NCBI GenBank assembly: GCA_963765865.1
Contig: CAVXYE010000018.1
Location: 458,476-522,475, forward strand
Direction: 5' to 3'
DNA: 64,000 nucleotides
Origin: an uncultured Actinomycetes bacterium
Lineage (GTDB): Bacteria; Actinomycetota; UBA4738; HRBIN12
Shown piece by piece: positions 9,649 to 59,728 of this stretch (within the stretch, counting starts at the first letter, position 1; each line of letters starts with the position of its first letter). The translations under genes and the position numbers were made by a program. Under the pieces are notes generated by a model that ran no database searches, was not told the DNA's origin, and saw only the letters and a program-made list of their open reading frames with translations.

Positions 9649-10251
9649 TCAATCGCCGGTCAGAAGGGCGCGGATGGCCCGGAACGCTCTCCCGCGGTGG
9701 CTGATCCGATCCTTCTCGCCGGGCTCGAGCTCGGCCATCGTCCGGTCCCAGCCCACGGGCACGAAGATCGGGTCGTACCCGAAGCCACCGGTACCGCGAG
9801 GTTTCGTGGTAAGGGCTCCCTCGCAAAGACCCTCGACCGAGATGAGCTCCCCGCCCGGAGCCACGAACGCGGCCACGCACCGATAGCGGGCCGTGAGACC
9901 GGCGGCCGGGATCCCCCGGACCGAGCGGATCAGCTCGGCGAGGTTCCGCTCGTCGGTCGCGTCCGGACCCGCGAACCTGGCGCTCCTCGGGCCCGGCCGC
10001 CCTCCGAGCGCGTCGACCTCGATCCCCGAGTCATCCGCGAGGGCAGGGATCCCCACGGCATCCGCGACGGCTCGAGCCTTGAGGGCCGCGTTGTCGAGGT
10101 AGGTCTCCCCCGTCTCGTCGACCTCCGGGAAGGTGCCCGCGTCACGGTCGTGAACCGTGACCCACTCCACCGGCCAATCCGAGCAGATCCGGATGATCTC
10201 GACGAGCTTGTGCTCGTTCTTCGTCGCGAGCGCGATCCGTCGGCGGAAGCG
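9649..10251 (-). CDS. rdgB: RdgB/HAM1 non-canonical purine NTP pyrophosphatase
   Basis: RIALATKNEHKLVEI...SGIEVDALGGRPG..FGYDPIFVP. No canonical in-frame start. The ATG at about 10252 is out of frame by 1 nt (possible indel). Confidence 0.75.
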   Translation of the reverse strand, partial: RFRRRIALATKNEHKLVEIIRICSDWPVEWVTVHDRDAGTFPEVDETGETYLDNAALKARAVADAVGIPALADDSGIEVDALGGRPGPRSARFAGPDATDERNLAELIRSVRGIPAAGLTARYRCVAAFVAPGGELISVEGLCEGALTTKPRGTGGFGYDPIFVPVGWDRTMAELEPGEKDRISHRGRAFRAIRALLTGD

Positions 10252-10262
10252 CCATCCGGGCT

Positions 10263-10979
10263 TCAGATACCCAGCGCCTCGGCCTGGATCTTCGTGAGCT
10301 CCGCGATCCCGGCCGCGGCGAGGTCGAGCAGCTCGTCGAGCTGCGGCCGGGAGAACGGCGAACCTTCCGCGGTCCCTTGCACCTCCACCAGCGCGCCGCC
10401 GCCGGTCATCACCACGTTGCAATCGACCTCCGCACCCGCGTCCTCCTCGTAGCAGAGGTCGAGACGGGGCTCACCGTCCACGATGCCGACCGACACCGCC
10501 GCGACCGAATCCTTCAACACCTCGGCCGGGGCTGGACCATCGGTCAAGCTCCGGAGGGCCAGGGCGAGCGCGATGTAGCCGCCCGTGATCGACGCCGTCC
10601 GGGTGCCCGCATCGGCCACCAGGACGTCACAGTCGACCGTCACGGTGCGCTCGCCGAGCCGTTCGAGTTCCGTGACGCTCCTGAGCGCCCGGCCGATCAA
10701 TCGCTGGATCTCCTGCGTGCGACCGCCCGGCTTCCCCCGGTTCACCTCGCGGCCGGACCGTTCCACGGTCGATGCGGGGAGCATCGAGTACTCGCCCGTG
10801 ACCCACCCACGACCCGTCCCGCGGAGCCAGCGTGGCGTGTCCTCCGACACCGTCGCCGCACAGAGCACGCGCGTCTTGCCCATGGAGAACAGCACGGAGC
10901 CGTTCGCCCACTCCTGATAGCCCAGCTCATAGCTCACGGGCCGGAGCTGCCCGTTGGCCCGGTCGTCGGGGCGGGTCAA
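10263..10979 (-). CDS. rph: ribonuclease PH
   Basis: TTG start with GGGAGA RBS, overlapping the upstream stop (TTGA). RPDDRANGQLRPVSYELGYQEWANGSVLFSMGKTRVLCAATV is the classic RNase PH N-terminus. Confidence 0.85.
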   Translation of the reverse strand: MTRPDDRANGQLRPVSYELGYQEWANGSVLFSMGKTRVLCAATVSEDTPRWLRGTGRGWVTGEYSMLPASTVERSGREVNRGKPGGRTQEIQRLIGRALRSVTELERLGERTVTVDCDVLVADAGTRTASITGGYIALALALRSLTDGPAPAEVLKDSVAAVSVGIVDGEPRLDLCYEEDAGAEVDCNVVMTGGGALVEVQGTAEGSPFSRPQLDELLDLAAAGIAELTKIQAEALGI

Positions 10980-11728
10980 CGGCCGATCTCCCACACCGCG
11001 TCGCGCGTCGCGACGTCGATCGGACCGTCGAACACCCGAGCCGCCTGTTCGAGCGAGACGCCGGGGTCGAGCGCAGGCGTCAGATGCGTGAGCACCAATC
11101 GGCGAACCTCGGCCCGCGCGGCGATCTCGGCCGCCTGCTCGGCACTGAGATGGAAGAAGGTGTGATCCATCGGGTCTTGATAGGTCGCCTCGCACAGGAA
11201 CAGGTCGGAGCCGCGGGCCAGCTCGATCGCCTCGTCGCAGGGGCCCGTGTCGCCGGTGTAGGCGAGCGTGTGGCCGTTCACCTCGATCCGGTACCCGAGC
11301 GAGTACACACCGATGTGGGTCATCTCGAAGGCCGTCACACGGAACGGCCCCACCTCCACCACACGCCCGGCGTCCAGATGGTCGAACGCGTACGCCTCGG
11401 CCATGACGTTCCGGCCGTTCTCCGAGACGAGCAACGCCGCAAGATCCATGAACCCGGCCGGCGAATAGAAGGGAAGGCCCGGCTGACCGAGATCGCCGTA
11501 ATGCCGCGCGTAGAACGCCGGGATCACATCGAGGAAGTGGTCCGCATGGCCGTGCGTGATCAGCACCGCATCGATCTCACCGGGCGCGACGTGCTCCTGC
11601 AAACGGGCGAAGGTGCCCGTTCCCGCGTCGAGCCAGAGGTGGAAGGACCCACTGGTGACGAGGTAGCCGCTGCACTCCCCCGCTGTTCCCGGCCACGTTC
11701 CGTGAGAACCCAAGACCGAGAGCCTCAC
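10976..11728 (-). CDS. MBL-fold metallo-hydrolase
   Basis: HxHxDH motif (ITHGHADHF). 4-nt overlaps with both neighbours. Confidence 0.75.
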   Translation of the reverse strand: MRLSVLGSHGTWPGTAGECSGYLVTSGSFHLWLDAGTGTFARLQEHVAPGEIDAVLITHGHADHFLDVIPAFYARHYGDLGQPGLPFYSPAGFMDLAALLVSENGRNVMAEAYAFDHLDAGRVVEVGPFRVTAFEMTHIGVYSLGYRIEVNGHTLAYTGDTGPCDEAIELARGSDLFLCEATYQDPMDHTFFHLSAEQAAEIAARAEVRRLVLTHLTPALDPGVSLEQAARVFDGPIDVATRDAVWEIGR

Positions 11729-12534
11729 GAGCGACCGCCCGCTTCGAGGTGGACGGCCTTGACGTGCGCCAGCTCGCGACCCAGGAAGAGCTCGGCATGG
11801 TCCCGGAACGGCTCGGCGTCTCCCGTCGTCAGGAACTCGTGGTGAGGGGGTGTCGGTTCATCGCGGAGGCTCCCCGCCCGAAGGAGCTCGGCGTAGACGT
11901 CCTTCGCCGTCTCCTCCGCGGAGGACACGAGCACGACATCGGGGCCGAGCTCCAGCTGGAGCAGCCCCGAGAGCAGCGGGTAGTGCGTGCAGCCCAAGAT
12001 CAACGTGTCGATCCCCTTCTCCTTCAGCGGTGCAAGATACCTGCGCGCGGCCTCCCGCAACTCCTCCGACGTCGTATCCCCGCGCTCCACATGCTCCACG
12101 AACACCGGGCAGGCGGCCCCGTGGAGCTCCACGACCGACCCCACCGCGCGCCGGTAGGCCCCGGCGTCGATCGTCGCGGTCGTCCCGATCACCCCGACCA
12201 CGCCGTTCCTGGTTGCTCGGATCGCGGCGCGGGCCCCTGGGTTGATCACCCCGACGACGGGGACCCCGTGCGCGGTCGCGATGTCGCCGATGGCGGAGAC
12301 CTCGATGGAATTGCACGCCACCACGAGCAGCTTGACGTCCCGCTCGACGAGGGACGCCGCGATCTCCATCGCGAACCTCCGGATCTCCTCGACCGGTCGC
12401 GGACCGTAGGGGAAGTTCGCCGAGTCCCCGACGTAGATCAGGGACTCGTTCGGCAACAACTCGAGGATGGCCCTCGCCACCGTGAGGCCACCGACGCCTG
12501 AGTCGAACACGCCGACCGGTCGGTTATCCGACAC
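11725..12534 (-). CDS. murI: glutamate racemase
   Basis: VGVFDSGVGGLTVARAI...VVACNSIEV...LGCTHYPLL. Confidence 0.85.
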   Translation of the reverse strand: MSDNRPVGVFDSGVGGLTVARAILELLPNESLIYVGDSANFPYGPRPVEEIRRFAMEIAASLVERDVKLLVVACNSIEVSAIGDIATAHGVPVVGVINPGARAAIRATRNGVVGVIGTTATIDAGAYRRAVGSVVELHGAACPVFVEHVERGDTTSEELREAARRYLAPLKEKGIDTLILGCTHYPLLSGLLQLELGPDVVLVSSAEETAKDVYAELLRAGSLRDEPTPPHHEFLTTGDAEPFRDHAELFLGRELAHVKAVHLEAGGRS

Positions 12535-12537
12535 GTG

Positions 12538-13470
12538 CTACCACCACAGCGACTCCTCGACCCCTCGCTCAGCCGCGGAGAGATCCTCCGCCCAGGCGTG
12601 CGTCGACAGGTACTTCCACCCGCCGTCGGGCAGGAGACACACGATGTCGCCACCGTCGAGCTCTTGGGAGATGCGCTGTGCGACGTGGATCACCGCGCCG
12701 CTGCTGATCCCCGCGAAGATCCCCTCCCGCGCCGTGAGCTCCCTCGTCGCGTGCAGGGAGTCGGCGGCGTTCACCAGGAATTTCCGGTCGATCTGCTCGG
12801 GGTCGAAGATCGGCGGGATGAACCCTTCGTCGAGCGAACGCAGCCCGTACACCAGATCGCCCAGCTCGGGCTCGGCCGCGACGACCTTGATCTGCTCGTT
12901 GTACGCATGGAGCCCGCGCCCGGCACCCGTCAGGGTTCCGCCGGTCCCCATGCCGGCGACGAAGTGCGAGATCGTCGGAAGGTCGCGGATGATCTCCTGC
13001 GCCGTCCCCTTCTCATGCGCGTCGGGGTTGGCGGGGTTCCCGTACTGGAAGGGCATGTAGTACCGGTCGTCGGTCGCGAGCGCGCGCGCGACCTCGATCG
13101 AGCCGTTCGTCCCCTTCGCTCCGTCCGATAGGACGATCTCGGCCCCGAACAATCGCAGGAGGCCGATCCGCTCCTCGCTCGCGTTGTCCGGGATCACCAC
13201 GGTGAGCTTGTATCCCTTGCGGCGTGCCACCATCGCGAGCGCGATGCCCGTGTTGCCCGACGTTGGCTCCAGGATCGTTCGTTCGGGCGTCAGCTCGCCC
13301 GAGCCCTCCGCCGCCTCCACCATGGCGAGGGCGATCCGATCCTTCGTCGAGCCGGTGGGGTTCTGCCCTTCGAGCTTGGCCCAGATGCGGACGCCCGGGG
13401 CGGAGGACATCCTGGGGATGCCGACGAGCGGCGTGTCCCCGATGGCATCCAGGATCGAGTCGAAGCGCAC
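12538..13470 (-). CDS. cysK: cysteine synthase (CysK/CysM family PLP enzyme)
   Basis: PLP lysine motif PTGSTKDRIA. GNTGIALA and SSGA motifs. Confidence 0.8.
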   Translation of the reverse strand: MRFDSILDAIGDTPLVGIPRMSSAPGVRIWAKLEGQNPTGSTKDRIALAMVEAAEGSGELTPERTILEPTSGNTGIALAMVARRKGYKLTVVIPDNASEERIGLLRLFGAEIVLSDGAKGTNGSIEVARALATDDRYYMPFQYGNPANPDAHEKGTAQEIIRDLPTISHFVAGMGTGGTLTGAGRGLHAYNEQIKVVAAEPELGDLVYGLRSLDEGFIPPIFDPEQIDRKFLVNAADSLHATRELTAREGIFAGISSGAVIHVAQRISQELDGGDIVCLLPDGGWKYLSTHAWAEDLSAAERGVEESLWW

Positions 13471-13525: not shown

Positions 13526-13939
13526 TCATCCAAGAACCCACCACGGGGTGTCGATCGTCGTCGAGCCTGGGTCGTTCGCGTCCTCGTACAGGAGCCTGGC
13601 GGCTCGATGACCCGCGTCGCTCAGCATCCACATCCGGGTGAGACCCGCGGCTCGACCGTCCTCGGCGAAAGCATCCAGGAGCTGCTTGCCGACCTTCGTC
13701 GATCGCACCGCCTCCGCCACCTGGAGGCTCGCGAGGAGTAGGAAAGAGCCACCGTCCGGCTGCGAGAAGGTTGAGCCCCACGCGAAGCCGACGACGGTCT
13801 CGCCGTCGGTCGCGACGTAGGCGAAGCCGCGTCCGTCGGCGAGGAACGCCGGGTTGGGGCGGCGCTCGAAACCGCGGAAGGCACGCACCGCGGCTTCGAG
13901 CGCCGCCCCATCGTTCGGGCCGAGCCTACGGATCTCCAC
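13526..13939 (-). CDS. GNAT family N-acetyltransferase
   Basis: 137 aa, acetyl-CoA binding region (VGKQLLDAFAEDGRAAG). Confidence 0.6.
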   Translation of the reverse strand: MEIRRLGPNDGAALEAAVRAFRGFERRPNPAFLADGRGFAYVATDGETVVGFAWGSTFSQPDGGSFLLLASLQVAEAVRSTKVGKQLLDAFAEDGRAAGLTRMWMLSDAGHRAARLLYEDANDPGSTTIDTPWWVLG

Positions 13940-14011
13940 AGGTGGGAGCTTGCCCCAACCGTGGGGGCGGCGCCAGGCTCGACGCGACTACGGGCAGGAT
14001 CGGGATCCGGC

Positions 14012-14975
14012 TCACCGCCAAGGCAGCGCGGCGCGTTCTGCCCAGTAGCGCTCGGGAGGCTGCGCGAGCTCGTTCATCGCCGCGAGCGCATCGTCGGGAA
14101 GCATCACGTCCACCGCCGACGCATTGCTCCGGACCTGCTCGACGGTCACCGCGCCCGACAGGACGACATCGGCCCACGGTTGCGCGTGGACGGCCGCGAG
14201 CGCGACCCGATCGGGCGTCGTCCCGAGCCGGCCGGCCACACCGCCGAGCGGCCCATCGGTCGCCGCGAGCCGACCGTTCGCCATCGCTTCCTTGATCAGG
14301 ACGCCGCGCCCGTCCGCGTGAGCCTCCGCCAACGCGGGACCGGCCGAAGGCTCCAGCACGTTCCAGGTCGACTGAACCGTCGAGAAGAGCGGTTCGCCAT
14401 CGACCCGCTCCTGGAGACCGCGAACGATCGCGTCGGCCTGCTGCGGACCGCTCGTGGAGAACCCGAGGAACAGGCCCGACTCCCGGAGCGAGCGGAGCTC
14501 ATCGAGCACCGCACGATCGTCGAACACACCGCTCTCGATGGTGGCGGAGTGGATCTGGTAGAGCGACAGGTGATCGCCCAGGAGCCGCCGCGACTCCGCG
14601 ATCTGCCGCCGGAGGGCGGTGACCGAGAGGTCCTTCACCTCTTGGACGTCGGCGTCGAGCCTCCATCCGCCCACGTAGGTGTATCCCCACTTCGATCCGA
14701 CGACGACATCGTCCGGATCGCGCGGTGGCGAGCCAGTCGCCCAGGAACGCCTCTGCATCTCCGTAGGAACGAGCCACGTCCACGTAGCGAACGCCGACGT
14801 CGTACGCGGCGTCGAGGACGTTATGGGTGCGCGCCTCCATCGCAGCGCGCGATCGCGCCAGCCCGAGGTCCCGATCACGTCCGACGTCGATGTACGCGGG
14901 ACGCCCGAGCGCGGCCAGCCCGAGCCCGATCCGAGAGACGACAAGCTCTGTTCCCCCGAGCCGTCGACGCTCCAT
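14012..14975 (-). pseudogene. aldo/keto reductase; apparent frameshift near 14700
   Basis: N-terminus MERRRLGGTELVVSRIGLGLAALGRP...DAAYDVGVRYVDVARSYGDAEAFLG in one frame. Remainder (VGSKWGYTY...LSLYQIHSATIESGV...) in another. Confidence 0.7.
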
Positions 14976-14997
14976 CTCGTCGCGGGGTCCCGCCCGA

Positions 14998-16416
14998 TCA
15001 CGTCTGCCGGTTGAACCAGATGCTCCCGGGCCCCGTCGAGAAGCTGGCGCCCTGCCCCGAGACCGTCACGCTCTTCCCGGCGTTGGTGATCGCGATCCCG
15101 TCATAGTCGCCGTAGTAGGACGTGAAGCCGTTCGCCCCCTTGTACGGAGCCCCTGACGTGGCGTCGGAGATCCGGAGCGGCGCCGACCACGTCGTGCCGC
15201 CGTCGCCGGAGGCGCGGTACCAGACGTTCCAGGAGCCCGTGCTGTTGTCCATGTAGGTGATCCGGAAATCGCCCGAGCCCTTCGCCGCGATCGCGGGGAA
15301 GCTGCCGTTCGCCGCCGCGTTGCCGACCTCGACCCTCCCCGACCACGTCACGCCACCATCGGTCGAGCGCCGGGTGAACACATGATTGTTCGCGCCCTGG
15401 GTCGTCGCCCCGGAGTACTCGATGACCAGAGCCCCCGACGCATCGGCCGCGATCGTCGTCGTGGACGACGTCTCGAAGTTGACCCCGGTGAAGACCGTGT
15501 TGTCGACCGTGACCTTGGTCCACGACGCCCCGCCGTTCGTGCTCCGCCACACCTCGATCTCCACGGGGCCGGCGGTCTTGACGCTTCCGCCCGAGTACTT
15601 GGAATCCGAGAGCACCGCGGTGCCGTTCGCCAGCACGACGAAGCCGTTCGGGTAGCGGTACACGCTCGAGTCGGTGTTCACCGCGACCGGGGTCGAGAAC
15701 GATGCCCCCGCGTTGTGCGATGACGTCAAGAAGAGTTGGCTGCGGCTCTCGTAGGCGACGTAGACGTCCGTCCCGTTCGCGCTCGTCGCCATCCAGGGCT
15801 TGTCCGCCCAGCTCTTGCCCGACACCTTGAGCGGTGTCGACCATGTGGAGCCGTGGTTCGTGGACTTGGAGAACACGATCGTGTTCGAGTTCATCCACGT
15901 TCCGTAGACGGCGCCCGACGCCGTCGTTGCGAGCACGGGGTCCCACTGGCCCGCGACGCCGCTGCACGTGCAGATCGGCTTCTCCGCAGCCCACGTCTGC
16001 CCGCCGTCGGCGGAGATCCGGATCTCCATCTGCGGGTTCGGGCAGTGCTGACACGTGATGCCGTAGCGGTTGTAGAGCGCGTAGACGTATGGGGCCGAGG
16101 GATCGGCAGCGACGTATGGCTCCCACGTGTCGTCGTTCGCGATCTGGACCTCGCCCGCCCAGCCCGTCGCGGCCAACGCGGAGGGGTCGAGGACCCGGCG
16201 CCGGATACTGATGGTGCCCGCGTGGTTCTCAGCAGCGGCATCAGGGTCACCACCCTCCTCGAGGCCCTCGGAGTCCTGACCTTCCGATGCCGGCTCGTCG
16301 TTGTGATCGGCGGTCGATGCCGCCGCGACGGCAGGGGCGTTCCGCGTCCTCAGGAACAAGGTCGCTCCCGCGGCGACGACCACGACGACGACGGCCAACA
16401 CGACGTACCTGCGCAT
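14998..16416 (-). CDS. membrane-anchored BNR/sialidase-like (exo-alpha-sialidase / glycoside hydrolase) protein
   Basis: N-terminal TM anchor. Multiple SxDxGxTW BNR repeats (STDGGVTWS, SGDGGTTWS, STNGGASWT). Confidence 0.65.
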   Translation of the reverse strand: MRRYVVLAVVVVVVAAGATLFLRTRNAPAVAAASTADHNDEPASEGQDSEGLEEGGDPDAAAENHAGTISIRRRVLDPSALAATGWAGEVQIANDDTWEPYVAADPSAPYVYALYNRYGITCQHCPNPQMEIRISADGGQTWAAEKPICTCSGVAGQWDPVLATTASGAVYGTWMNSNTIVFSKSTNHGSTWSTPLKVSGKSWADKPWMATSANGTDVYVAYESRSQLFLTSSHNAGASFSTPVAVNTDSSVYRYPNGFVVLANGTAVLSDSKYSGGSVKTAGPVEIEVWRSTNGGASWTKVTVDNTVFTGVNFETSSTTTIAADASGALVIEYSGATTQGANNHVFTRRSTDGGVTWSGRVEVGNAAANGSFPAIAAKGSGDFRITYMDNSTGSWNVWYRASGDGGTTWSAPLRISDATSGAPYKGANGFTSYYGDYDGIAITNAGKSVTVSGQGASFSTGPGSIWFNRQT

Positions 16417-16532
16417 GCGCCCCTCCCGACTCGGTCTCCGGTTCGCGACGCGAACCTAGGACGCGACGGAGGCGGGCGCGAATCGCGGGATGACCGATGG
16501 TCACTCCGCCGCTCGTCCCTCCTGACCTTCGG

Positions 16533-16895
16533 CTAGGAGCCGCTCTTGGCGTAGTTGCTCGCGCCGAACCAATCCACGACGACGACCGGCTCATCGCCGA
16601 GGACCCACGCGTCGTGTCCGCTCGGCAGTGACGTCACATCGCCCGGCTCGGCGACGAACTCCGTGCCGTCGTCCATCCGGATCGCGAGCTTCCCGGCGAC
16701 GTGGTACTGGAAATGGGGTGCCTCGCAGCTCGGCGTCTGCGCGATCGGCTTCACGTCGGTCGACCAGCGCCACCCCGGCTCGAACACGAGCCGTCCGATC
16801 TCGGAGTCACCCACCTTCAGGATCTCCGCGTGTCCGTTCGGGAACTCTCGGAGCTCGTCCGGCTCACCGAAGTCCCTGTGCTCGGTCTGCTGCAT
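16533..16895 (-). CDS. cupin domain protein
   Basis: Start at MQQTEH with GGAGG RBS. Divergent from the TetR gene. Confidence 0.6.
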   Translation of the reverse strand: MQQTEHRDFGEPDELREFPNGHAEILKVGDSEIGRLVFEPGWRWSTDVKPIAQTPSCEAPHFQYHVAGKLAIRMDDGTEFVAEPGDVTSLPSGHDAWVLGDEPVVVVDWFGASNYAKSGS

Positions 16896-16932
16896 CTCGA
16901 CCACTCCTCCCGATCCTCGACAGGGTGTATCC

Positions 16933-16950
16933 TTACTTACTAGTAGGTCA
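16933..16950. promoter_or_regulatory. candidate TetR operator (AT-rich palindrome core TACTAGTA) in the divergent cupin/TetR intergenic region
   Basis: cttacTTACTAGTAggtca stands out as an AT-rich near-palindrome in a GC-rich genome, placed between divergent starts. Confidence 0.3.
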
Positions 16951-16987
16951 GAAGTCAACCGTCACGAAGAGGGAAACTGCGCGAGCG

Positions 16988-17569
16988 ATGGGAGCGACCG
17001 AGGTGGACACCGCGACCCAGATCCTCGATGTGGCCGAGCGTCTGGTGCAGGAACGCGGCTACAACGGATTCAGTTACGCCGACGTCGCCAGCGAGCTCGA
17101 CATCTCGAAGGCAGCGCTCCACTACCACTACCCCGGCAAGGCGGAGCTCGGCGAAGCACTGATCGAGCGGTACGCGACGCGGTTCGCGGAGGCGCTCGTG
17201 GCCGTCGACGCCCGCGGGATCGACGCGGCCGAGAAGCTCCGCGCGTACGCGCAGCTGTACGCGGAGGTGTTCCGAGACGATCGGATGTGCTTGTGCGGGA
17301 TGCTCGCCGCCGACTACGCGACCCTGCCCGAGCCGATGCGCGAGCGGGTCGTGCGGTTCTTCGACGACAACGAGGTCTGGCTGACCCACGTGCTCGAAGA
17401 CGGCCGCGCGGCGCGGACCCTGCGTTTCCAGGGACCCGCTCGGAGCGTCGCGCGAACGCTGGTCGGCGGACTCGAGGGCGCGATGCTGGTCGCGCGGCCC
17501 TACAAGGACATCAAACGGTTCCGATCAGCAGCATCGCTGCTGATCGATGGTCTCGCGGTCGAGCGCTAG
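16988..17569 (+). CDS. TetR/AcrR family transcriptional regulator
   Basis: HTH QERGYNGFSYADVASELDISKAALHYHYPGK. Confidence 0.8.
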   Translation: MGATEVDTATQILDVAERLVQERGYNGFSYADVASELDISKAALHYHYPGKAELGEALIERYATRFAEALVAVDARGIDAAEKLRAYAQLYAEVFRDDRMCLCGMLAADYATLPEPMRERVVRFFDDNEVWLTHVLEDGRAARTLRFQGPARSVARTLVGGLEGAMLVARPYKDIKRFRSAASLLIDGLAVER

Positions 17570-17860
17570 GCGCGGGCGGCGCTCCGCGCCGCCCGCCACC
17601 GCGGGGAGGATCGAGACGACGTCGCCGTCCGCGACGGCGGTCTCGAGCGAGCCCAGGTAGCGCACGTCCTCGTCGTTCACGTAGACGTTGATGAAGCGGT
17701 GCAAACCGCCCCCCTCGGCCAGGACGTTCTTCGTGACGCCCGGATACCGTGACTCGAGGTCCTTCAGGACCTCCTCGAGCGTGGCCCCTTCGACGGTCAC
17801 CCGCGCCTCGTCACCGGCGAACTTGCGGAGGATCGTTGGGAGTTTGACGGTCACGGGCAT
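17525..17860 (-). CDS. cysO: MoaD/ThiS/CysO-type ubiquitin-like sulfur-carrier protein with a 20-aa extension after Gly-Gly
   Basis: MPVTVKLPTILRKFAG...HRFINVYVNDEDVRYLG...ILPAVAGG, then the same frame continues AERRPRLALDRETIDQQRCC before the stop. Overlaps the TetR 3' end by 45 bp. Confidence 0.7.
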   Translation of the reverse strand: MPVTVKLPTILRKFAGDEARVTVEGATLEEVLKDLESRYPGVTKNVLAEGGGLHRFINVYVNDEDVRYLGSLETAVADGDVVSILPAVAGGAERRPRLALDRETIDQQRCC

Positions 17861-17875
17861 CGGTTCAGCAACTCC

Positions 17876-18709
17876 TCATCCGGCTCGGGCGGGGACGCCG
17901 CAGAACTGCTCGTAATCGATCAACTCGGTGATCGTCGGATCCTTGCCGCACACCGGGCAATCGGCGTCCCAGCGGATCTTCATCTCTTGGAAGTCCATGG
18001 TGAGGGCGTCGTACAGGAGCAACCGGCCCTCGAGCGTGTCGCCCTCCCCCGTGATGATCTTGATCGCCTCGGTCGCTTGGATCGATCCGATCACGCCCGG
18101 CAGGACACCGAACACGCCACCCTCGGCGCAGCTCGGGACGGTGCCGGGCGGCGGCGGAGCCGGGAACAGGCACCGGTAGCACGGCGTCTCCTGACCGGGC
18201 ATGAACACCGTCGCCTGGCCTTCGAACTGGTAGATCGAACCGTACACGAGGGGCTTGCCCGTGAACTGCGTCGCATCGTTGACGAGGTAGCGGACCGGGA
18301 AGTTGTCGGTGCCGTCGACGATCACGTCGTAGCCCTCGAAGATCTCGAACACGTTCGTCGAGAACAGCAACGTCTCGTGGCCTACCACCTCGATCGTGGG
18401 GTTGATCGCTCGGAGGTGATCGACGGCCGAGGCCACCTTCGAGCGGCCGACGTCGGCCGTGGTGTGCAGGATCTGGCGCTGAAGGTTGGTCACATCCACC
18501 TGGTCGAAGTCCACGATGCCGAGCTTGCCGATGCCGGCGGCCGCCAGGTACATCGCGACGGGGGAGCCGAGTCCGCCGGCGCCGATCACCAAGACCGAGC
18601 TGTCGAGGAGCTTCCGCTGACCCTTGCCGCCGATGTTCGGCAAGATGATGTGGCGCGAGTAGCGTTGCACCTGCTCTTCGGTGAACATCGGCGGCGTTGA
18701 GGCGCTCAT
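17876..18709 (-). CDS. moeB: MoeB/ThiF/MoeZ-type E1-like adenylyltransferase (no rhodanese domain)
   Basis: VLVIGAGGLGSP nucleotide loop. CxxC...CxxC zinc motif. Confidence 0.85.
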   Translation of the reverse strand: MSASTPPMFTEEQVQRYSRHIILPNIGGKGQRKLLDSSVLVIGAGGLGSPVAMYLAAAGIGKLGIVDFDQVDVTNLQRQILHTTADVGRSKVASAVDHLRAINPTIEVVGHETLLFSTNVFEIFEGYDVIVDGTDNFPVRYLVNDATQFTGKPLVYGSIYQFEGQATVFMPGQETPCYRCLFPAPPPPGTVPSCAEGGVFGVLPGVIGSIQATEAIKIITGEGDTLEGRLLLYDALTMDFQEMKIRWDADCPVCGKDPTITELIDYEQFCGVPARAG

Positions 18710-19158
18710 GCGATCGAGAGCTCCTCTTCCGTGATCGCACCGTCCCGGATCCAGAACGAGCGAGCGATCGGATCCGTCCGGTCGGCGAGCGACACGACGA
18801 TGTATCGAGCGTCCGGATAGAACGCGAGCCGCGTGTCCGTCTCGCTCGGGTACGCGTCCGAGTGCGTATGGGAATGGTAGATCGACCAGAGGTCCCAGCC
18901 GCGCTCATCGAGCTCATCGAACACCTTGAGCTGCTCCTTGCCGTCGAGGCGGTAGGTTGCCGGGCTCGCGTCGGCGTTCGTCATCGGGAAGACCTTCACC
19001 GGGACGCCGGCCTCCGCCGCGATCAGACCGCAGCATTCGTTCGGGAATTCGCGGAGCGCCTGCTCCACGATCTCTTTGAAGAGGACGCCGTCAAGCTCGG
19101 TCACGCTTCGTCTCCGGGAGGTCGGCCGGACAGGCGCAGCCGCCTGTTGCAGGTGCAA
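18706..19158 (-). CDS. mec: Mec+/JAMM (MPN) family metalloprotease
   Basis: JAMM motif E...HSHTHSDAYPSETD. 4-nt overlap with moeB. Confidence 0.8.
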   Translation of the reverse strand: MHLQQAAAPVRPTSRRRSVTELDGVLFKEIVEQALREFPNECCGLIAAEAGVPVKVFPMTNADASPATYRLDGKEQLKVFDELDERGWDLWSIYHSHTHSDAYPSETDTRLAFYPDARYIVVSLADRTDPIARSFWIRDGAITEEELSIA

Positions 19159-19177
19159 ATGCTACCAGCGGGGTGGG

Positions 19178-20206
19178 TTATTCCCGGACCCGTCCGATCA
19201 CGGTGATCGACCCCGGTGGACCCGGCACGACCTCGCCGATCTCGGTGAACAGGTCCGTGGACGGGCTCCGATCCGAAGCCACCAGGAGTCCTCCACTCGT
19301 CTGCGCGTCGGCCAACACGATCTGTTCGGGCGGTGTGAGCTCGCCCCACTCGGTGACCTCCTGCAGCCAGGCGTGGTTGCGCTTGGTCCCGCCGGCGACG
19401 ATGTCTCGTCTGGCCAGGTCGAGCACCGTCGGGAGGAGCGGCACGGAACCCGCGTTCACGATCGCAGCGCACCCGCTCGCGTCCAGCATCTTCCTGAGGT
19501 GCCCGAGGAGGCCGAACCCGGTGACGTCCGTCCCCGCTCCCACGCCGGCCGAGACCATCGCGGCGGACGCGTCCGCGTTGAGCGCAGTCATCGTGTTCAC
19601 CGCGAGCCGGGCGACGTCTTCGTCCGTCTGCCCGCGCTTGATCGCCGTCGTGATGAGCCCGGTCCCGATCGGCTTCGAGAGGTACAGATGCATCCCCGGT
19701 CGTGCCGTGGAGTTGCGGACGATCGCGTCCGTCTCGACGAAGCCGATGGCCACCATCCCGAACAGCGGTTCTCGCTCGGTGGTGATCGTGTGCCCGCCGA
19801 CCACCGCCGCGCCGGCCTCGAGGACGATCTGGCGAGCACCCGCCAAGACCTCGGCGAGCAGCTCGAGCGGGAGCTCGTCGACCGGCCATCCCGCCACGTT
19901 CAAAGCGAGCCGCGGCGACCCGCCCATCGCGTACACGTCACTGAGTGCGTTGGCGGCCGCGATCCGGCCCCAGTCGCCGGGGTCGTCGACCAACGGCGTG
20001 AAGAAGTCGAGGGTGAGCACCAGTCCGGTTCCATCCGTGAGGCGGTACACGGCGGCGTCATCGCCGGTCTCCTCCGACACGAGGACGTCCTCAGGCTTCG
20101 TGGTCGGGCCGAGCAGATCGAGCACCCGCGTGAGCTCCCGCGGGCCGAGCTTGCACGCGCATCCCGCCCCGTGGCTGAACGACGTGAGGCGAAGCGCTTG
20201 CACCAT
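19178..20206 (-). CDS. selD: selenide, water dikinase (selenophosphate synthetase), Cys form
   Basis: N-terminal SHGAGCACK (Cys at the Sec/Cys position), DAAVY, PurM-like fold. Stop of fabI and this ATG are arranged TGAtcATG. Confidence 0.85.
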   Translation of the reverse strand: MVQALRLTSFSHGAGCACKLGPRELTRVLDLLGPTTKPEDVLVSEETGDDAAVYRLTDGTGLVLTLDFFTPLVDDPGDWGRIAAANALSDVYAMGGSPRLALNVAGWPVDELPLELLAEVLAGARQIVLEAGAAVVGGHTITTEREPLFGMVAIGFVETDAIVRNSTARPGMHLYLSKPIGTGLITTAIKRGQTDEDVARLAVNTMTALNADASAAMVSAGVGAGTDVTGFGLLGHLRKMLDASGCAAIVNAGSVPLLPTVLDLARRDIVAGGTKRNHAWLQEVTEWGELTPPEQIVLADAQTSGGLLVASDRSPSTDLFTEIGEVVPGPPGSITVIGRVRE

Positions 20207-20208
20207 GA

Positions 20209-20983
20209 TCAGACCAGGTCCGTCCCCATCGCATGGAACCCCCCGTCGACGTGCACGACCTCACCCGTGATGCCCGACGAGAGGTCCGACAGGAGGAACG
20301 CGACGGTGTTCCCCACCGGGGTCGGGTCCTCCACGTCCCAACCGAGCGGCGCGCGACGGCTCCACGAACCGCTGATCTGATCGAACCCCGGGATGCCCTT
20401 GCCCGCCATCGTCTTGATCGGGCCGGCGCTCACCGCGTTGACGCGGATCCCCTTCGGACCGAGGTCGCGGGCGAGGTACCGCGTGACGGATTCGAGACCG
20501 GCCTTGGCGACGCCCATCCAGTCATAGATGGGCCATGCCACGGTCGCATCGAAGTCGAGCGACACGATCGCGCCGCCGTCGCCCATCGACGGCAGCAGCC
20601 CGACCGCGAGCGCCTTCAGTGAGAACGCGCTGGTCTGCACGGCTGTGGCGACGCTGTCCCAGGGCGTATTCAGGAAATTGCCTCCCAACGCATCTTGGGG
20701 GGCGAAGGCGATCGCGTGGAGGAAACCATCGAGGCGTCCCCATCGCTGTTGGAGCTCTTCACAGACCGCGGCGATCTGCTCGTCGGAGTTCGCGTCCATC
20801 TCCAGGACGTCCGGCGTCGTGGGGAGCCGCTTGGCCGTCTTCTGGGTGAGGCTGACGGTGCGTCCGAAGTTCGTCAGGACGATCTCCGCGCCCTGCTCCT
20901 GAGCGGATCTTCGCGGCCGCGAACGCGATCGACTGCGGCGTGAGCACGCCGGTGATCAGCAGCTTCTTCCCCTCCAGCAGCAT
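20209..20983 (-). pseudogene. fabI: enoyl-[ACP] reductase FabI/InhA; apparent 1-bp insertion near 20905
   Basis: MLLEGKKLLITGVLTPQSIAFAAAKI then out of frame. Removing one C restores ...AQEQGAEIVLTNFGR... joining the InhA-like C-terminal ORF (SAGPIKT...VHVDGGFH). Confidence 0.8.
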
Positions 20984-24937: not shown

Positions 24938-25863
24938 TCCGCGACCACCTCGCGGAAGAGCTCCGCGAGCGAGGGGCGAACCGGGCCGAACGACACGACG
25001 TCGCCCTCTGCGCGGGCAAGATCCAGGACGCGTTGCGGATCCGCCTCCACGCTCAGTTCCAGCACGACGGCCCCGTCGTCCTGACCCGCGAGCGAGACAC
25101 CGGGCACGACCCCCCACCATCCCTGCGTCGCCGCCGGAACCTCGACCCGCCAGAGGTTGCGCGCCCGCATCGCGCGGAGCTCATGGATCGACCCCCGCGC
25201 GACGATGCGCCCGCGGTCGATCAGCACGACCTCATCGCAGAGCCGTTCGACCAGCTCGAGCTGATGGCTCGAGAAGACGACCGGGACGCCCCGGTCGCGC
25301 GCCTGCCCGCGGAGCACGTCCGCCAGGACATCCACCCCGACCGGGTCCAGCCCCGAGAACGGCTCATCGAGGACCAGGACGTCGGGCTCGTGGACGAGCG
25401 CGGCTGCCAGCTGGACGCGTTGCTGGTTCCCCAACGACAGGGTCTCCATGCGATCGTTCGGATCACCGACGACCTCGAGGAGCTCGAGGAGCTCCGTGGC
25501 GCGGCTGCGCGCCACGCCCTTGGGCGTGCCGCGCAGCCGCGCCAGGTACACCAGCTGTTCGCGCACCCGCATCTTCGGGTACAGCCCGCGTTCCTCGGGC
25601 ATGTAGCCGAAGCGTCGTCGGGTCACGGCGTCGACGGGCCGTCCTCGCCATTCGACCTGGCCGGCGTCGGCGTGGAGCACCCCGAGCGCGATGCGCATCG
25701 TCGTCGTCTTGCCCGACCCGTTGCGCCCGACGAACCCCACGATCCGTCCCTCGGGGACCTCGAAGGACACGCCATCGAGCGCGACGACGTCGTCGAACCG
25801 ACGGCGGAGATCGATCAGCTCGAGCACGGGCGAAGCCAGGATAGGCGAGGGAGAACCTGGCAC
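24934..25863 (-). CDS. ABC transporter ATP-binding protein
   Basis: Walker A GRNGSGKTT. Signature LSLGNQQRV. Walker B VLVLDEPFSGLD. Confidence 0.85.
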   Translation of the reverse strand: MPGSPSPILASPVLELIDLRRRFDDVVALDGVSFEVPEGRIVGFVGRNGSGKTTTMRIALGVLHADAGQVEWRGRPVDAVTRRRFGYMPEERGLYPKMRVREQLVYLARLRGTPKGVARSRATELLELLEVVGDPNDRMETLSLGNQQRVQLAAALVHEPDVLVLDEPFSGLDPVGVDVLADVLRGQARDRGVPVVFSSHQLELVERLCDEVVLIDRGRIVARGSIHELRAMRARNLWRVEVPAATQGWWGVVPGVSLAGQDDGAVVLELSVEADPQRVLDLARAEGDVVSFGPVRPSLAELFREVVAE

Positions 25864-25905
25864 CGGTACCCCGCCTCCCTCGCGGAGGCGGGGTACCGGC
25901 CGTGG

Positions 25906-28249
25906 TCAGGCCGCGGTGACGGACGTCGGCGCCGGCTCGCCGAGCGCCACGCCCAAGACGTCCCGGACGTCGTCGGCGAGGTGGAACCGCATCTCGGCGC
26001 GGACCTGCTCCGGGACGTCGTCCAGATCGCCTTCGTTCCGCTTCGGCAGGATGACCTCCGTGAGTCCCGCCCGGTGCGCGGCGAGCACCTTCTGCTTCAC
26101 GCCGCCGATCGGCAGGACCCGACCCTGGAGGGTGACCTCGCCGGTCATCCCGACGGCCGGCCTGACCGTCTCGCCGGTGAGCAGCGAGACGAGCGCGGTC
26201 GTCATCGTGACCCCGGCGCTCGGTCCGTCCTTCGGAACCGCACCCGCGGGCACGTGGACGTGGAACCGGCCGGTGAGCCGGCCCGGGTTCGATCCCGAGC
26301 TCCGTCGCGTGCGAGCGGACGAACGACAGGGCGATCTGCGCCGATTCCTTCATCACGTCGCCGAGCTGCCCGGTCAGGGTCAGCCCCTCGCCCTCGTCCT
26401 CACGCGTGGCCTCGATGAACAAGACGTCCCCACCCGTGCCGGTCACGGCGAGGCCCGTCGCGACGCCCGGGACCGAGGTCCGTTCGGCCATCTCTTCGAA
26501 GGAGAAGCGCTGGCGGCCCAGATAGCCCCGCACGTCGTCGCGGTCGACGACGACCGGAGCCACCGTGTCGCCCGCGGCGAGCTTCGTCGCGACCTTGCGG
26601 AAGGTCTTGCCCAGCTCTCGCTCCAGGTTGCGAACGCCCGCTTCCCGCGTGTACGACGCCACGATCTCGCGGAGGGCATCGTCCGTGACACTCACTTCGT
26701 CCTCTCGGAGCCCGTTGCGCTCGATCTGCCGCGGCATCAGGTGATGCCGAGCGATCGCGACCTTCTCGTCCTCCGTGTACCCGTCGAGCCGGAGCACCTC
26801 CATCCGGTCGAGCAACGGTCCCGGGATCGTCTCGGCGACGTTGCCCGTCGCGACGAACAGCACCTCAGACAGGTCGAGATCGACGTCGAGGTAGTGGTCG
26901 CGGAAGGTGTGGTTCTGCGCCGGGTCGAGCACCTCGAGGAGCGCCGAGGAGGGGTCGCCGCGCCAGTCGGCTCCGACCTTGTCGATCTCATCGAGCATCA
27001 TCACGGGGTTCTTCGTCCCCGCGTCCTTCAGCGCGCGCACGATCCGTCCCGGCAGCGCACCGACGTACGTCCGGCGGTGGCCGCGGATCTCGGCCTCGTC
27101 GTGCACGCCACCGAGGGAGACGCGGACGAACTTCCGTCCGAGCGCACGCGCGACCGACTCGCCGAGCGACGTCTTGCCGACACCGGGAGGTCCGATCAGG
27201 GTGAGGATCGCGCCGGATCCTCGTCCGCCCTCTTCCGAGAGCCCACGCTCCGCCCGGAGCTTGCGGACGGCCAGGTATTCGACGATCCGGTCCTTCACGT
27301 CGCCGAGGCCCTCGTGATCCTCGTCGAGGATGCGACGCGCGTCGGTGATGTCCAGGTTGTCCTCGGTGCGCACGTTCCAGGGAAGCTCGGTCATCCAATC
27401 GAGGTACGTGCGGATCCACCCGTACTCGGGCGACTGCTCGGAGGTTCGCTCGAGCCGGCCGAGCTCCCGCTCGGCCTGCTCGCGGACGCCGTCGGGCATC
27501 CCGGACTCCGTGATCTTGGCGCGGAGCGTCTCGATCACGTCCTCCGAACCGTCTTCGCCGAGCTCCTTGCGGATCGCGGCCATCTGCTCGCGCAGGATCG
27601 CCTCGCGCTGACGCTGCTCGAGGCTGTCCGACACCTCGTCGCGGATCTTCTCCTTCACCTGCACCTCGGCGAGGGTGTCCTTCGCCCACTCGAGGACGAG
27701 CTCGAGCCTGCGCTCGACGTCGATCGTCTCGAGGACCTCGACCTTCCGCTCGAAGGAGAGATCCGGCGAGTACCCCGCGATGTCCGCGATCTGTCCGGGA
27801 TCGGACAGGCCCCGGAGGAACTCGGCGACGGCGGGGACGCCCCGGGCCTCGACGATGCTCTCGATCGTCGCGCGATACTCGCGCGCGAGCGTTTCCGCCC
27901 GTTCGGACGCGGGCTCGTCCGCGACGGGCTCGAGCTGAACCCACGTCGCTTCGCCGGTGCCGGCGACGCCGACGCCGATCGTCGCGCGGGCCAGGCCGCG
28001 GATCACGAGCGCCTCCGTCCCGCCCCGGATCTTGCCGAGGTCCTCGATCTTCGCGATCGTCCCGACGCGCGCGTAGCGCCCGTCGAGCCGAGGCACGAGC
28101 ACGAGCAGCCGGTCGTCGTCCGAAGCGGCGGCGTCGACCGCCGCCCTGGCCTCGGGCGACTCCAGCGTGAGCGTCACCACCATGCCCGGCAGGACCACAC
28201 CGGTGGTCAGCGGGAGCAGCGGGAGCGCCAAAGTGTCTAGATCAGCCAT
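25906..28249 (-). pseudogene. lon: ATP-dependent Lon protease (La); apparent frameshift near 26270
   Basis: LON N-domain, AAA+ (GPPGVGKTS) in the long frame. Protease domain with catalytic PKDGPSAG serine in the 25906..26253 frame. Confidence 0.85.
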
Positions 28250-28405
28250 CGAAGTCCCTTTCGCATCGAGCGATTCGCACCTGCAAGAACACGACGCCTC
28301 GCGAGGGCATTCCCGGTCTCGGTGAGGTGATTACATCGTTACATGCTTCATCCGTTCACGAACTTCGACGAACGTTCATGTGTCGTTGTCATCGGGAGGC
28401 CGTAG
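28250..28405. promoter_or_regulatory. divergent lon / ABC-efflux promoter region with AT-richer repeats
   Basis: Direct repeat TTACAT-cg-TTACAT, palindrome GAACGTTC and an imperfect inverted repeat CGTTCACGAAc/TTCGACGAACG. Function unassigned. Confidence 0.25.
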
Positions 28406-58713: not shown

Positions 58714-58741
58714 GGTGCACCCATTCATGCCGTGCGACGCC

Positions 58742-59092
58742 GGTGGAGGTGGCGGGATTCGAACCCGCGTGCTCGGGCGACCATCTGGGGCTTCTCCGGG
58801 CGCAGCCGGCGTATGGATCTCACCTCGGGGTCTCCACCGGCGGAAGGCCCCTCGGCCAGCCCGGGTGCGATGTCCCGCGGTGGCCCCCAGGCGGAGCCCT
58901 CGCGGTGAGCCTGCTCAGTGACGCCCGTACCCCGACCGCAGGCACACGGGGCGGGCGGCTACCTAGAGACTAGGCAGCGAGCGCGAACTCGTCGTTGGCG
59001 CTTGTGTTGGTCCGGCGTTTTACGTGACATCCGGGATCACGGCCCGCTTCACCCAGACGGTTATCCGTCCGAGTCGAAACCAGTACACCCCC
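58742..59092 (-). ncRNA. ssrA: tmRNA (SsrA), tag peptide ANDEFALAA
   Basis: Minus-strand RNA begins GGGGGUGUACUGGUUUCGAC and ends ...GGUUCGAAUCCCGCCACCUCCACC (the terminal A is not encoded). The 7-bp acceptor pairs with the 5' end. Internal reading frame GCC AAC GAC GAG TTC GCG CTC GCT GCC TAG. Adjacent to smpB. Confidence 0.85.
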
Positions 59093-59260: not shown

Positions 59261-59728
59261 CTAGCGCCGCCGGCCGGCCGCCCGCTCCATCTCGCGCTGC
59301 GCCTCGCGCTTCGCGATCGACTGGCGCTTCTCGTACTTCCGCTTCCCGCGAGCCAGCGCGACCTCGACCTTCGCGATCCCGTGCGTGAAGTAGATGCGGA
59401 GCGGGACGAGGGACAGGCCCTTCTCGTTGACCTCGCGAGCGATCTGATCGATCTCCCGCCGGTGCAGGAGCAGCTTGCGCGGCCGGAGCGGCTGATGCGT
59501 GCGCTTGTCTCCCTGCTCGTACGCCGGGATGTGCAGGCCCTCGAGCCACAGCTCGCTCCCTCGCGCGCGGCCGTAACAGTCGACCAGGGAGGCGCGCCCC
59601 TCCCGGAGCGACTTCACCTCGTCTCCCGTGAGCTGGATGCCACACTCGAAGTGCTCGAGCAGCTCGTAATCGTGTCGCGCACGCCGGTTGCTGGCGACGA
59701 TCTTCTCACCCTCGTCCTGCCGGCCCAT
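59261..59728 (-). CDS. smpB: SsrA-binding protein
   Basis: IVASNRRARHDYELLE...GIQLTGDEVKSLR, Lys/Arg-rich C-terminal tail. Confidence 0.9.
   Translation of the reverse strand: MGRQDEGEKIVASNRRARHDYELLEHFECGIQLTGDEVKSLREGRASLVDCYGRARGSELWLEGLHIPAYEQGDKRTHQPLRPRKLLLHRREIDQIAREVNEKGLSLVPLRIYFTHGIAKVEVALARGKRKYEKRQSIAKREAQREMERAAGRRR

Follow-up and report, generated by a model that had tools for sequence, protein, structure and literature searches.

Conserved adjacency of selD to a variant CysO/CysM/Mec-type gene cluster in an uncultured clade of Actinomycetota

In the genome of an uncultured Actinomycetes bacterium, selD, the gene for selenophosphate synthetase, lies directly upstream of genes for a JAMM metalloprotease (mec), an E1 adenylyltransferase (moeB), and a ubiquitin-like carrier protein (cysO). 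We analyzed this locus within a 64,000-nt stretch of contig CAVXYE010000018.1 (assembly GCA_963765865.1), referred to as the window; all coordinates are those of the window, the loci compared with it are labeled L001 onward, and neighborhoods were limited to 10 kb on either side of selD. A first-pass annotation of this DNA had described these genes, together with fabI, as a tightly coupled operon whose carrier could receive selenium. We find that the selD-mec adjacency, hitherto undescribed, is deeply conserved in an abundant clade of uncultured actinobacteria, and we consider it probable that an ordinary SelD here stands beside a variant of the CysO/CysM/Mec pathway, with separate promoters and an adjacency of single vertical origin. 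The central features of the locus are the following.

20209..20983, minus strand: fabI, enoyl-acyl carrier protein reductase (NF005908, 288 bits on the C-terminal open reading frame [ORF]; an N-terminal 74-aa ORF matches positions 4-32)
19178..20206, minus strand: selD, Cys-type selenophosphate synthetase (TIGR00476, motif SHGAGCACK)
19146..19184, minus strand: promoter/operator-like motif GGAATAACCCACCCCGCTGGTAGCAT-TTGCACCTGCAAC, recognized by its conservation across loci
18706..19104, minus strand: mec-like JAMM/MPN+ metalloprotease (Prok-JAB PF14464, motif HSHTHSDAYPSETD; start given as 19158 in the first-pass annotation)
17876..18709, minus strand: ThiF/MoeB-type E1 adenylyltransferase (ThiF PF00899, 284.8 bits)
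17525..17860, minus strand: CysO-like carrier of the ThiS/MoaD fold (ThiS PF02597, 67.8 bits)

The five minus-strand genes, from fabI to the carrier, are present at the coordinates first assigned to them, and profile searches agree with the families proposed. Most of the close spacings reported for them were also recovered: the fabI stop codon stands 2 nt ahead of the selD ATG (TGAtcATG), the mec stop codon overlaps the E1 start as ATGA, a 4-nt overlap, and 15 nt separate the E1 gene from the carrier gene. The 19-nt spacer described between selD and mec probably does not hold, since it presumes a TTG start at 19158; the likeliest start of mec is GTG 19104, as this codon is preceded by a GGAG Shine-Dalgarno sequence and is also the called start in L001, and the spacer then measures 73 nt. 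In the window, fabI is frameshifted: aligned with the intact genes of L001, a near-identical ENA contig, and of L002, it shows a single additional A near 20911 (20905-20915). The extra A is either an assembly error or the mark of a very recent pseudogene.

Judged by its sequence, the window SelD is canonical in every testable respect. It scores 367.8 bits against TIGR00476 (cutoff, 125) over positions 1-308 of 311, matches both PF00586 (AIRS) and PF02769 (AIRS_C), and aligns with the structure of Escherichia coli SelD (3u0o, 5e-77), catalytic motifs included. The motif SHGAGC(A/G)CK is found in 64/64 SelD copies of the clade, and the window copy, SHGAGCACK, confirms the Cys-type GAGCACK assignment made at first pass. 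Pseudogenization of selD was rejected, as the ORFs are intact and the ratio of nonsynonymous to synonymous substitution rates (dN/dS = 0.12-0.19) denotes purifying selection. Fusions of SelD to ThiF, ThiS, JAB, or rhodanese domains were likewise sought and discarded, the best 120 homologues, all from the same clade, being plain AIRS plus AIRS_C proteins.

The conservation of the locus was assessed by two surveys. Species-representative genomes were scanned with SelD, returning 80 loci, and metagenomes were scanned, independently of SelD, for an 18-mer of the mec promoter, yielding 38 loci with a downstream JAMM gene. The order selD-mec-E1-carrier was found in about 100 genome and metagenome loci belonging to one clade of uncultured Actinomycetota, with SelD identities that go down to about 55%. 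Some MAGs of this clade have contigs on the Mb scale (for example, CAVVOG010000003.1, CAVTOC010000006.1, CAVPJX010000001.1, and CAVOIB010000010.1). In about 40 of the 42 closest genome loci, all from metagenome-assembled genomes (MAGs) of uncultured Actinomycetota and with SelD identities of 54-92%, selD is followed by the JAMM, E1, and carrier genes; the deeper loci L041 and L042 show selD-JAMM-carrier-cysM without an E1. Acidimicrobiia and Gemmatimonadales account for the next 38 SelD loci (about 50-54% identity), and there none of the three genes stands alongside selD. Among the metagenome loci, 33 were taken as informative for their upstream sequence, and selD is found within 400 nt in 21 of them and 0.5-1.6 kb upstream in 7 (28/33 in total); the other 5 are too short upstream to decide on selD, and the same insert types are present there. 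No clear case of SelD loss was seen among the genome and metagenome loci surveyed. The adjacency is far beyond chance, and it recurs in relatives; its absence there, combined with a complete Sec-decoding or selenouridine pathway elsewhere in the genome, had been named at first pass as grounds for calling the linkage incidental. Two loci carry labels that do not fit this distribution: L023 (JBLMXP010000017.1), labeled a Planctomycetaceae MAG, has the actinobacterial cluster, and L057 (CAMBEL010000023.1), labeled a Bifidobacterium breve MAG, has an outgroup-type SelD. Both labels probably reflect binning contaminants.

The SelD identity groups nest within the E1 groups, and therefore the association arose once and was passed on vertically. 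Identities of SelD and E1 are weakly correlated, with a rho of 0.40 versus 0.79 for E1 and JAMM, which hinted at repeated acquisition or in situ replacement of selD; this was rejected because the groups are nested and SelD identity saturates near 0.6. When junctions of 200 nt or less are counted as tight, mec-E1 (70/70), E1-carrier (53/53), and cysM-murI (29/29) are always tight, selD-mec is tight in 58/70 loci, and carrier-cysM and fabI-selD are tight in 11/31 and 13/41, respectively. Since the unrelated pair cysM-murI is never separated and the linked pair carrier-cysM is often split, tightness is a poor guide to function here. The TGAtcATG coupling of fabI to selD is limited to the nearest relatives of the window.

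Between selD and mec, the loci share a motif, GGAATA-N13-TGGTAGCAT-TTGCACCTGCAAC, which is nearly invariant even where SelD is only about 60% identical. It comprises a GGAAT element that overlaps the selD stop codon, a -10-like hexamer, TANNNT, and then a perfect palindrome, TTGCA-CC-TGCAA; the signature GGAAT...TAG(C/G)AT-TTGCACCTGCAA was found upstream of mec in loci L002-L043 and L084-L160. In 12/70 loci, selD and mec are separated by inserts of 0.2-2.2 kb, some of them on the opposite strand, which include membrane protein genes and a PfkB kinase gene (opposite strand) as well as BNR-like, nitrilase-like, and hydrolase genes. Because the motif stays beside mec across inserts of 0.5-2.2 kb, selD is to be seen as a neighbor and not as a member of the operon. 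A structured RNA or riboswitch upstream of mec was considered and rejected: Rfam returned no match for the spacer motif at gathering or permissive thresholds, and RNAalifold on 20 leaders recovered the invariant palindrome only, with no covariation or compensatory pairs. The motif is therefore read as DNA and, given its conservation, is best read as a putative promoter and operator of the mec unit. The canonical SigH/SigR promoter, GGAAT-N18-GTT, was also tried for mec; it fits lon and, as GGAAT-N17-GTT, one subclade (L017-L021), but not the majority form. Upstream of selD, most loci (L004, L005, L011-L039) have a -10-like element of the type cGTA(T/A)(C/G)CTcg located 6-8 nt before the ATG, which would imply that the selD mRNA is leaderless in most clade members. 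With a motif of its own for mec, inserts in 12/70 loci, a separate -10-like element for selD, and a fabI coupling that is merely local, the description of a tightly coupled operon including selD is not one that we retain.

The JAMM, E1, and carrier genes had been recognized at first pass as an actinobacterial thiocarboxylate system of the CysO type. Our matches to CysO and CysM and the synteny agree with this view. The best solved-structure match of the carrier is Mycobacterium tuberculosis CysO (3dwg_C, 5.5e-27, full length), and the cysteine synthase at 12538-13470 scores 329 bits against M. tuberculosis CysM (3dwg_A), compared with 243 or less for other cysteine synthases. The JAMM protein matches PF14464 with 74.9 bits and has the metal motif HSHTHSD...SETD. 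The E1, which contains CxxC...CxxC zinc motifs and PSCAEGG, aligns to positions 15-276 of 392 in MoeZ, 115-385 of 387 in PRK08762, and 7-267 of 270 in UbaA; since its match to the MoeZ/MoeB models is confined to their ThiF portion, it lacks a rhodanese domain, as the first-pass annotation had stated. Clustering of neighboring genes gave the consensus order selD, mec, E1, cysO, [variable], cysM, murI, MBL-fold (metallo-beta-lactamase-fold) phosphodiesterase, rph, rdgB, which we take to be the Rv1334-Rv1341 block of M. tuberculosis plus an E1. In the window, this downstream part and its surroundings are arranged as follows.

16988..17569, plus strand: TetR-family regulator, convergent, whose 3' end overlaps the carrier tail; conserved only in close relatives
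13526..16958, minus strand: lineage-specific insertion between carrier and cysM, absent where cysM directly follows the carrier
16533-16958, minus strand: cupin-like gene, part of this insertion
14998-16416, minus strand: BNR-like secreted protein, part of this insertion
14012-15001, minus strand: aldo-keto reductase, part of this insertion
13526-13939, minus strand: acetyltransferase, part of this insertion
12538..13470, minus strand: cysM, of the CysO-dependent O-phosphoserine sulfhydrylase type (M. tuberculosis CysM 3dwg_A, 329 bits)
9673..12534, minus strand: conserved downstream block murI/Rv1339-like/rph/rdgB, defined from gene-order maps across loci
11725-12534, minus strand: murI
10976-11728, minus strand: Rv1339-like MBL phosphodiesterase (NF041851, Rv1339 family)
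about 10272-10994, minus strand: rph
about 9673-10250, minus strand: rdgB

The cysM gene of the window is on the same strand as the carrier gene and 4 kb downstream of it. The gap noted at first pass is thus real, at 4 rather than 5 kb, but cysM does not belong outside the cluster: it directly follows the carrier in 11/31 loci, deep branches included, and the intervening genes (cupin-like, BNR-like, aldo-keto reductase, acetyltransferase, and TetR) are, by this comparison, a recent insertion. The BNR-like family represented at 14998-16416 occupies the carrier/cysM junction in the window and the selD/mec junction in other lineages (L096, L124, L129, L146), and it appears to be mobile or recurrently recruited.

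The triad could also be viewed as serving mainly SAMP-like conjugation or general sulfur mobilization (molybdenum cofactor, tRNA thiolation), with the JAMM protein as a deconjugase. The carrier passes the NCBIfam SAMP1 model (63.3 bits; cutoff, 60) and the archaeal MoaD model (57.8; cutoff, 49.5), the E1 gives a full-length match to UbaA (355.9 bits), the JAMM protein has a match to the desampylase model, and an E1 devoid of rhodanese is the archaeal arrangement. However, the UbaA and desampylase scores both fall below their cutoffs (355.9 against 450 and 65 against 130), no E2/E3-like genes are present, and the best solved-structure match of the carrier is a CysO. As a cysM gene resembling that of M. 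tuberculosis directly follows in many loci and the synteny equals that of the mec-cysO-cysM block, we regard this alternative as improbable.

The carrier of the window runs past its Gly-Gly (codons 17588-17593) with a 20-aa tail (17528-17587), which overlaps, in antisense, the last 42 nt of the convergent TetR gene (16988-17569, plus strand). Across loci, the Gly-Gly is followed by no residue in about 14 cases, by 1-2 residues in about 11, and by 9 to more than 60 in about 10. These tails are nonhomologous and very unequal in length, as though selection for a stop codon behind Gly-Gly were weak. Given such tails, the JAMM protein would have to mature the carrier, in addition to cleaving the CysO-cysteine adduct, an activity that we infer from the M. 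tuberculosis pathway. The trimming of QbsE by QbsD is analogous to the one proposed here.

The 18-mer of the mec promoter also precedes rhodanese and TusA-like genes in other high-G+C metagenome contigs. The rhodanese is a stand-alone, single-domain protein of 116 aa (L113, 1975-2325, minus strand; L090) whose best family matches are the rhodanese domains of MoeB/MoeZ, and its promoter is identical to that of mec over 32 nt in L090 and L113. We put this protein forward as a candidate for supplying the rhodanese-less E1 with sulfur in trans. A rhodanese encoded in trans is a simpler account of such an E1 than SelD is, and we therefore do not follow the suggestion that selenophosphate replaces the rhodanese persulfide, since a separate MoeZ/MoeB-type rhodanese under a near-identical promoter is more economical. 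The TusA-like (CPxP) genes that carry the 18-mer have leader ORFs with MIRTRCRGLVGAMIPDRCCC, of the form M(I/V)RTRCRGLVGAMIPDRCCC..., and the leader consensus is M(I/V)(R/C)TR(C/E)(R/A)G(L/T)VGAMIPDRCCC... (L098, L109, L130, L132, L161, L086, L120, L139, L151). In mycobacteria, polycysteine leader ORFs control the expression of sulfurtransferase operons (bioRxiv 10.1101/834739), and by analogy, the TusA leader ORF is probably a cysteine-responsive attenuator. A DsrE-like gene follows the TusA-like gene in one of the leader-ORF cases.

A related element lies upstream of lon in the window.

28275..28313, minus strand: lon promoter, GGAAT-N18-GTT and then TTGCAGGTGCGA, the palindrome being a one-mismatch copy of the mec palindrome

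The motif common to mec, rhodanese, TusA-like genes, and lon suggests an undescribed sulfur-trafficking or thiol-stress regulon behind the shared signature. In M. tuberculosis, transcription of mec-cysO-cysM starts from a SigH-dependent promoter upstream of mec, with AosR also taking part (PMC8280819). The Lon frame itself is broken in the window (25463-28249, minus strand): its N-terminal two-thirds enters out-of-frame sequence, the C-terminal proteolytic domain forms a separate ORF at 25906-26253, and L001 also calls lon as two genes. Elsewhere in the window, a transfer-messenger RNA (tmRNA) gene at 58741-59092 (minus strand), with the tag peptide ANDEFALAA, adjoins smpB (59261-59728).

The selenium context of selD was examined with E. 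coli SelA, SelB, SelU, YqeB, and YqeC as queries. No homologue was found in the window, as the first-pass annotation had also noted, or within 10 kb in about 160 loci, and selenium genes of these five kinds concealed in inserts or among the neighbors were thereby rejected. Neither a tRNA-Sec nor a selenium-related Rfam element occurs in the window, where the sole Rfam match is the tmRNA. The outgroup SelD loci likewise have selD without a nearby selenium gene, and a lone selD is therefore normal in these lineages. Published surveys of selD neighbors list selA, selB, selU, NADH oxidoreductase fusions, SirA/YedF-like genes, DUF3343, senB, and a few others, and none lists ThiF, ThiS, or JAMM genes (PMC2432076, PMC5322559, PMC5029168, bioRxiv 10.1101/2022.04.13.486033). 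Full-text literature searches turned up no link of SelD to CysO/ThiF/JAMM or to a selenocarboxylate, and no description of the mec promoter motif; the first-pass annotation had known of no such system either.

Put in mechanistic terms, the proposal of that annotation would have selenophosphate or selenide attack the acyl-adenylate made by the E1 to give a carrier selenocarboxylate, SelD taking the place of the rhodanese. In SelA, SelU, and SenB, selenophosphate is the nucleophile that attacks an activated substrate, and the proposal would suit an E1 without a rhodanese domain, an adjacency kept across a deep clade with no SelD loss seen, the lack of selA/selB/selU/yqeBC within 10 kb in any locus, and the silence of the literature on such a system. 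We nevertheless consider it unlikely. The mec promoter/operator is common to sulfur-trafficking genes and absent upstream of selD, unrelated and opposite-strand inserts part selD from mec in 12/70 loci, and the MoeZ-type rhodanese under the same promoter provides the missing domain in trans. Furthermore, SelD adjoins the operon even where the E1 is absent (L041, L042), the association has one evolutionary origin with no independent recurrence, and the carrier and CysM are ordinary CysO/CysM orthologues. The idea that the carrier receives selenium thus has the adjacency as its sole ground. Its downstream part, in which CysM and Mec would act with O-phosphoserine to release free selenocysteine or another selenium metabolite, also seems unlikely to us, free selenocysteine being generally toxic. 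A related view would make SelD an orphan, with its selenophosphate or selenide either loaded on the CysO-like carrier after activation by the E1 or serving as a direct substrate of the O-phosphoserine-dependent CysM. If true, it would lead to a protein selenocarboxylate or to free selenocysteine and would amount to a previously unknown SelD-dependent trait on ubiquitin-like sulfur-carrier machinery. We hold this to be very improbable. Orphan SelDs are rare, with 26 organisms in 5200 genomes (PMC5029168), which speaks against the selenium carrier proposed at first pass.

Cross talk between sulfur and selenium metabolism offers another link, of opposite direction, in which CysO/CysM/Mec would capture selenide and pass it to SelD, directly or by way of selenocysteine, or SelD would stay beside the operon to clear selenide that might spoil the thiocarboxylate route, which is highly sensitive to nucleophiles. 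Selenide is turned into selenocysteine by cysteine synthases, and lyases of the NifS type pass selenium to SelD. The persistent proximity of selD and mec would be accommodated, as would the TusA/YedF-like proteins in the same promoter family, SirA/YedF-like genes being known selD neighbors (PMC2432076). Gene-order maps of the loci, however, show no cysteine desulfurase or selenocysteine lyase in the neighborhood, and the selD and mec promoters differ. We give little credence to such an exchange, and the corollary that proximity denotes common physiology rather than one pathway appears improbable as well.

In the reading that we favor, the locus would consist of two units without functional coupling. 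The first would be selD, fused to fabI only in the near relatives of the window, whose product, a canonical Cys-type selenide, water dikinase, would supply selenophosphate to any selenium trait encoded elsewhere in the genome. The second would be mec-moeB-cysO, which ancestrally ran straight into cysM-murI-Rv1339-like-rph-rdgB and which, by homology with M. tuberculosis, would be a variant form of the route by which actinobacteria make cysteine from O-phosphoserine and the CysO thiocarboxylate. The in-operon E1 would adenylate the C-terminal Gly-Gly of the carrier, and sulfur would arrive in trans, from the stand-alone MoeZ-type rhodanese and/or TusA-like proteins or as sulfide, giving the thiocarboxylate CysO-COSH. 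CysM would then condense CysO-COSH with O-phosphoserine, and Mec would free the cysteine. Mec would also trim the variable residues beyond Gly-Gly, 20 aa in the window, to produce the mature carrier. The shared promoter/operator would place this unit in a cysteine or thiol-stress regulon, as with SigH/AosR in M. tuberculosis, and the selD-mec adjacency would have been inherited as conserved synteny, like the tight but functionally unrelated cysM-murI pair.

Several observations weigh against this separation of selD from its neighbors. In every informative locus, selD stays within 2.2 kb upstream of mec, down to identities of about 70% for the E1 and about 42% for the JAMM protein, and the selD-mec junction outlasts the fabI-selD and carrier-cysM junctions, which would fit some selective link. 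The five E. coli queries found no other selenium gene near selD that SelD might serve. The promoter was assigned to mec on sequence conservation only, and a look for an intrinsic terminator behind selD detected none, which leaves room for read-through into mec.

Should SelD be functionally tied to the carrier, the locus would represent a new, specific use of selenium and the first ubiquitin-like carrier handling this element. If the adjacency is mere synteny, the locus still documents a CysO/CysM variant with an in-operon, rhodanese-less E1, a split-off rhodanese, and carriers needing C-terminal trimming, together with an apparently undescribed promoter/operator signature that joins the mec operon, rhodanese, TusA-like genes, and lon in abundant soil Actinomycetota.

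The known SelD-dependent traits are selenocysteine (Sec) through SelA/SelB, selenouridine through SelU, the selenium-molybdenum hydroxylases of YqeB/YqeC, and selenoneine through SenA/SenB. The window SelD is a full-scoring enzyme of the kind that serves them, and it differs in its setting, SelA, SelB, SelU, YqeB, and YqeC not having been found within 10 kb in the window and about 160 loci. The TusA-like genes with a mec-type promoter and a leader ORF ending in ...PDRCCC resemble the leaderless polycysteine short-ORF attenuators of mycobacteria (bioRxiv 10.1101/834739), whereas the mec leader of the clade has no polycysteine ORF and only the promoter/operator is common. With the archaeal SAMP/UbaA/HvJAMM1 system, the clade has in common an E1 of about 270 aa that stands alone and lacks rhodanese, a carrier of the SAMP1/MoaD kind, and a JAMM partner; it differs in its bacterial host, in the linkage of the triad to cysM, and in E1 and JAMM scores that fall below the family cutoffs. 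In the thioquinolobactin proteins QbsC/D/E, a JAMM protease strips the residues after the carrier Gly-Gly ahead of E1 activation, as proposed here. The Qbs proteins differ in belonging to a siderophore pathway, in the rhodanese domain of QbsC, and in a 2-aa tail, the tails of the clade being variable and not conserved. The M. tuberculosis Mec (Rv1334)-CysO (Rv1335)-CysM (Rv1336) system shares with the clade a Gly-Gly carrier of the ThiS fold, a CysM-type sulfhydrylase, a unit that begins with the JAMM gene, a promoter of the stress type just ahead of mec, and murI, Rv1339-like, rph, and rdgB genes downstream. In contrast to M. tuberculosis, where CysO works with MoeZ, an E1 fused to a rhodanese domain, the clade has its E1 within the operon and without rhodanese, the MoeZ-type rhodanese being a separate gene; its carrier often has residues after Gly-Gly, the window has 4 kb of unrelated genes between carrier and cysM, and selD stands immediately upstream.

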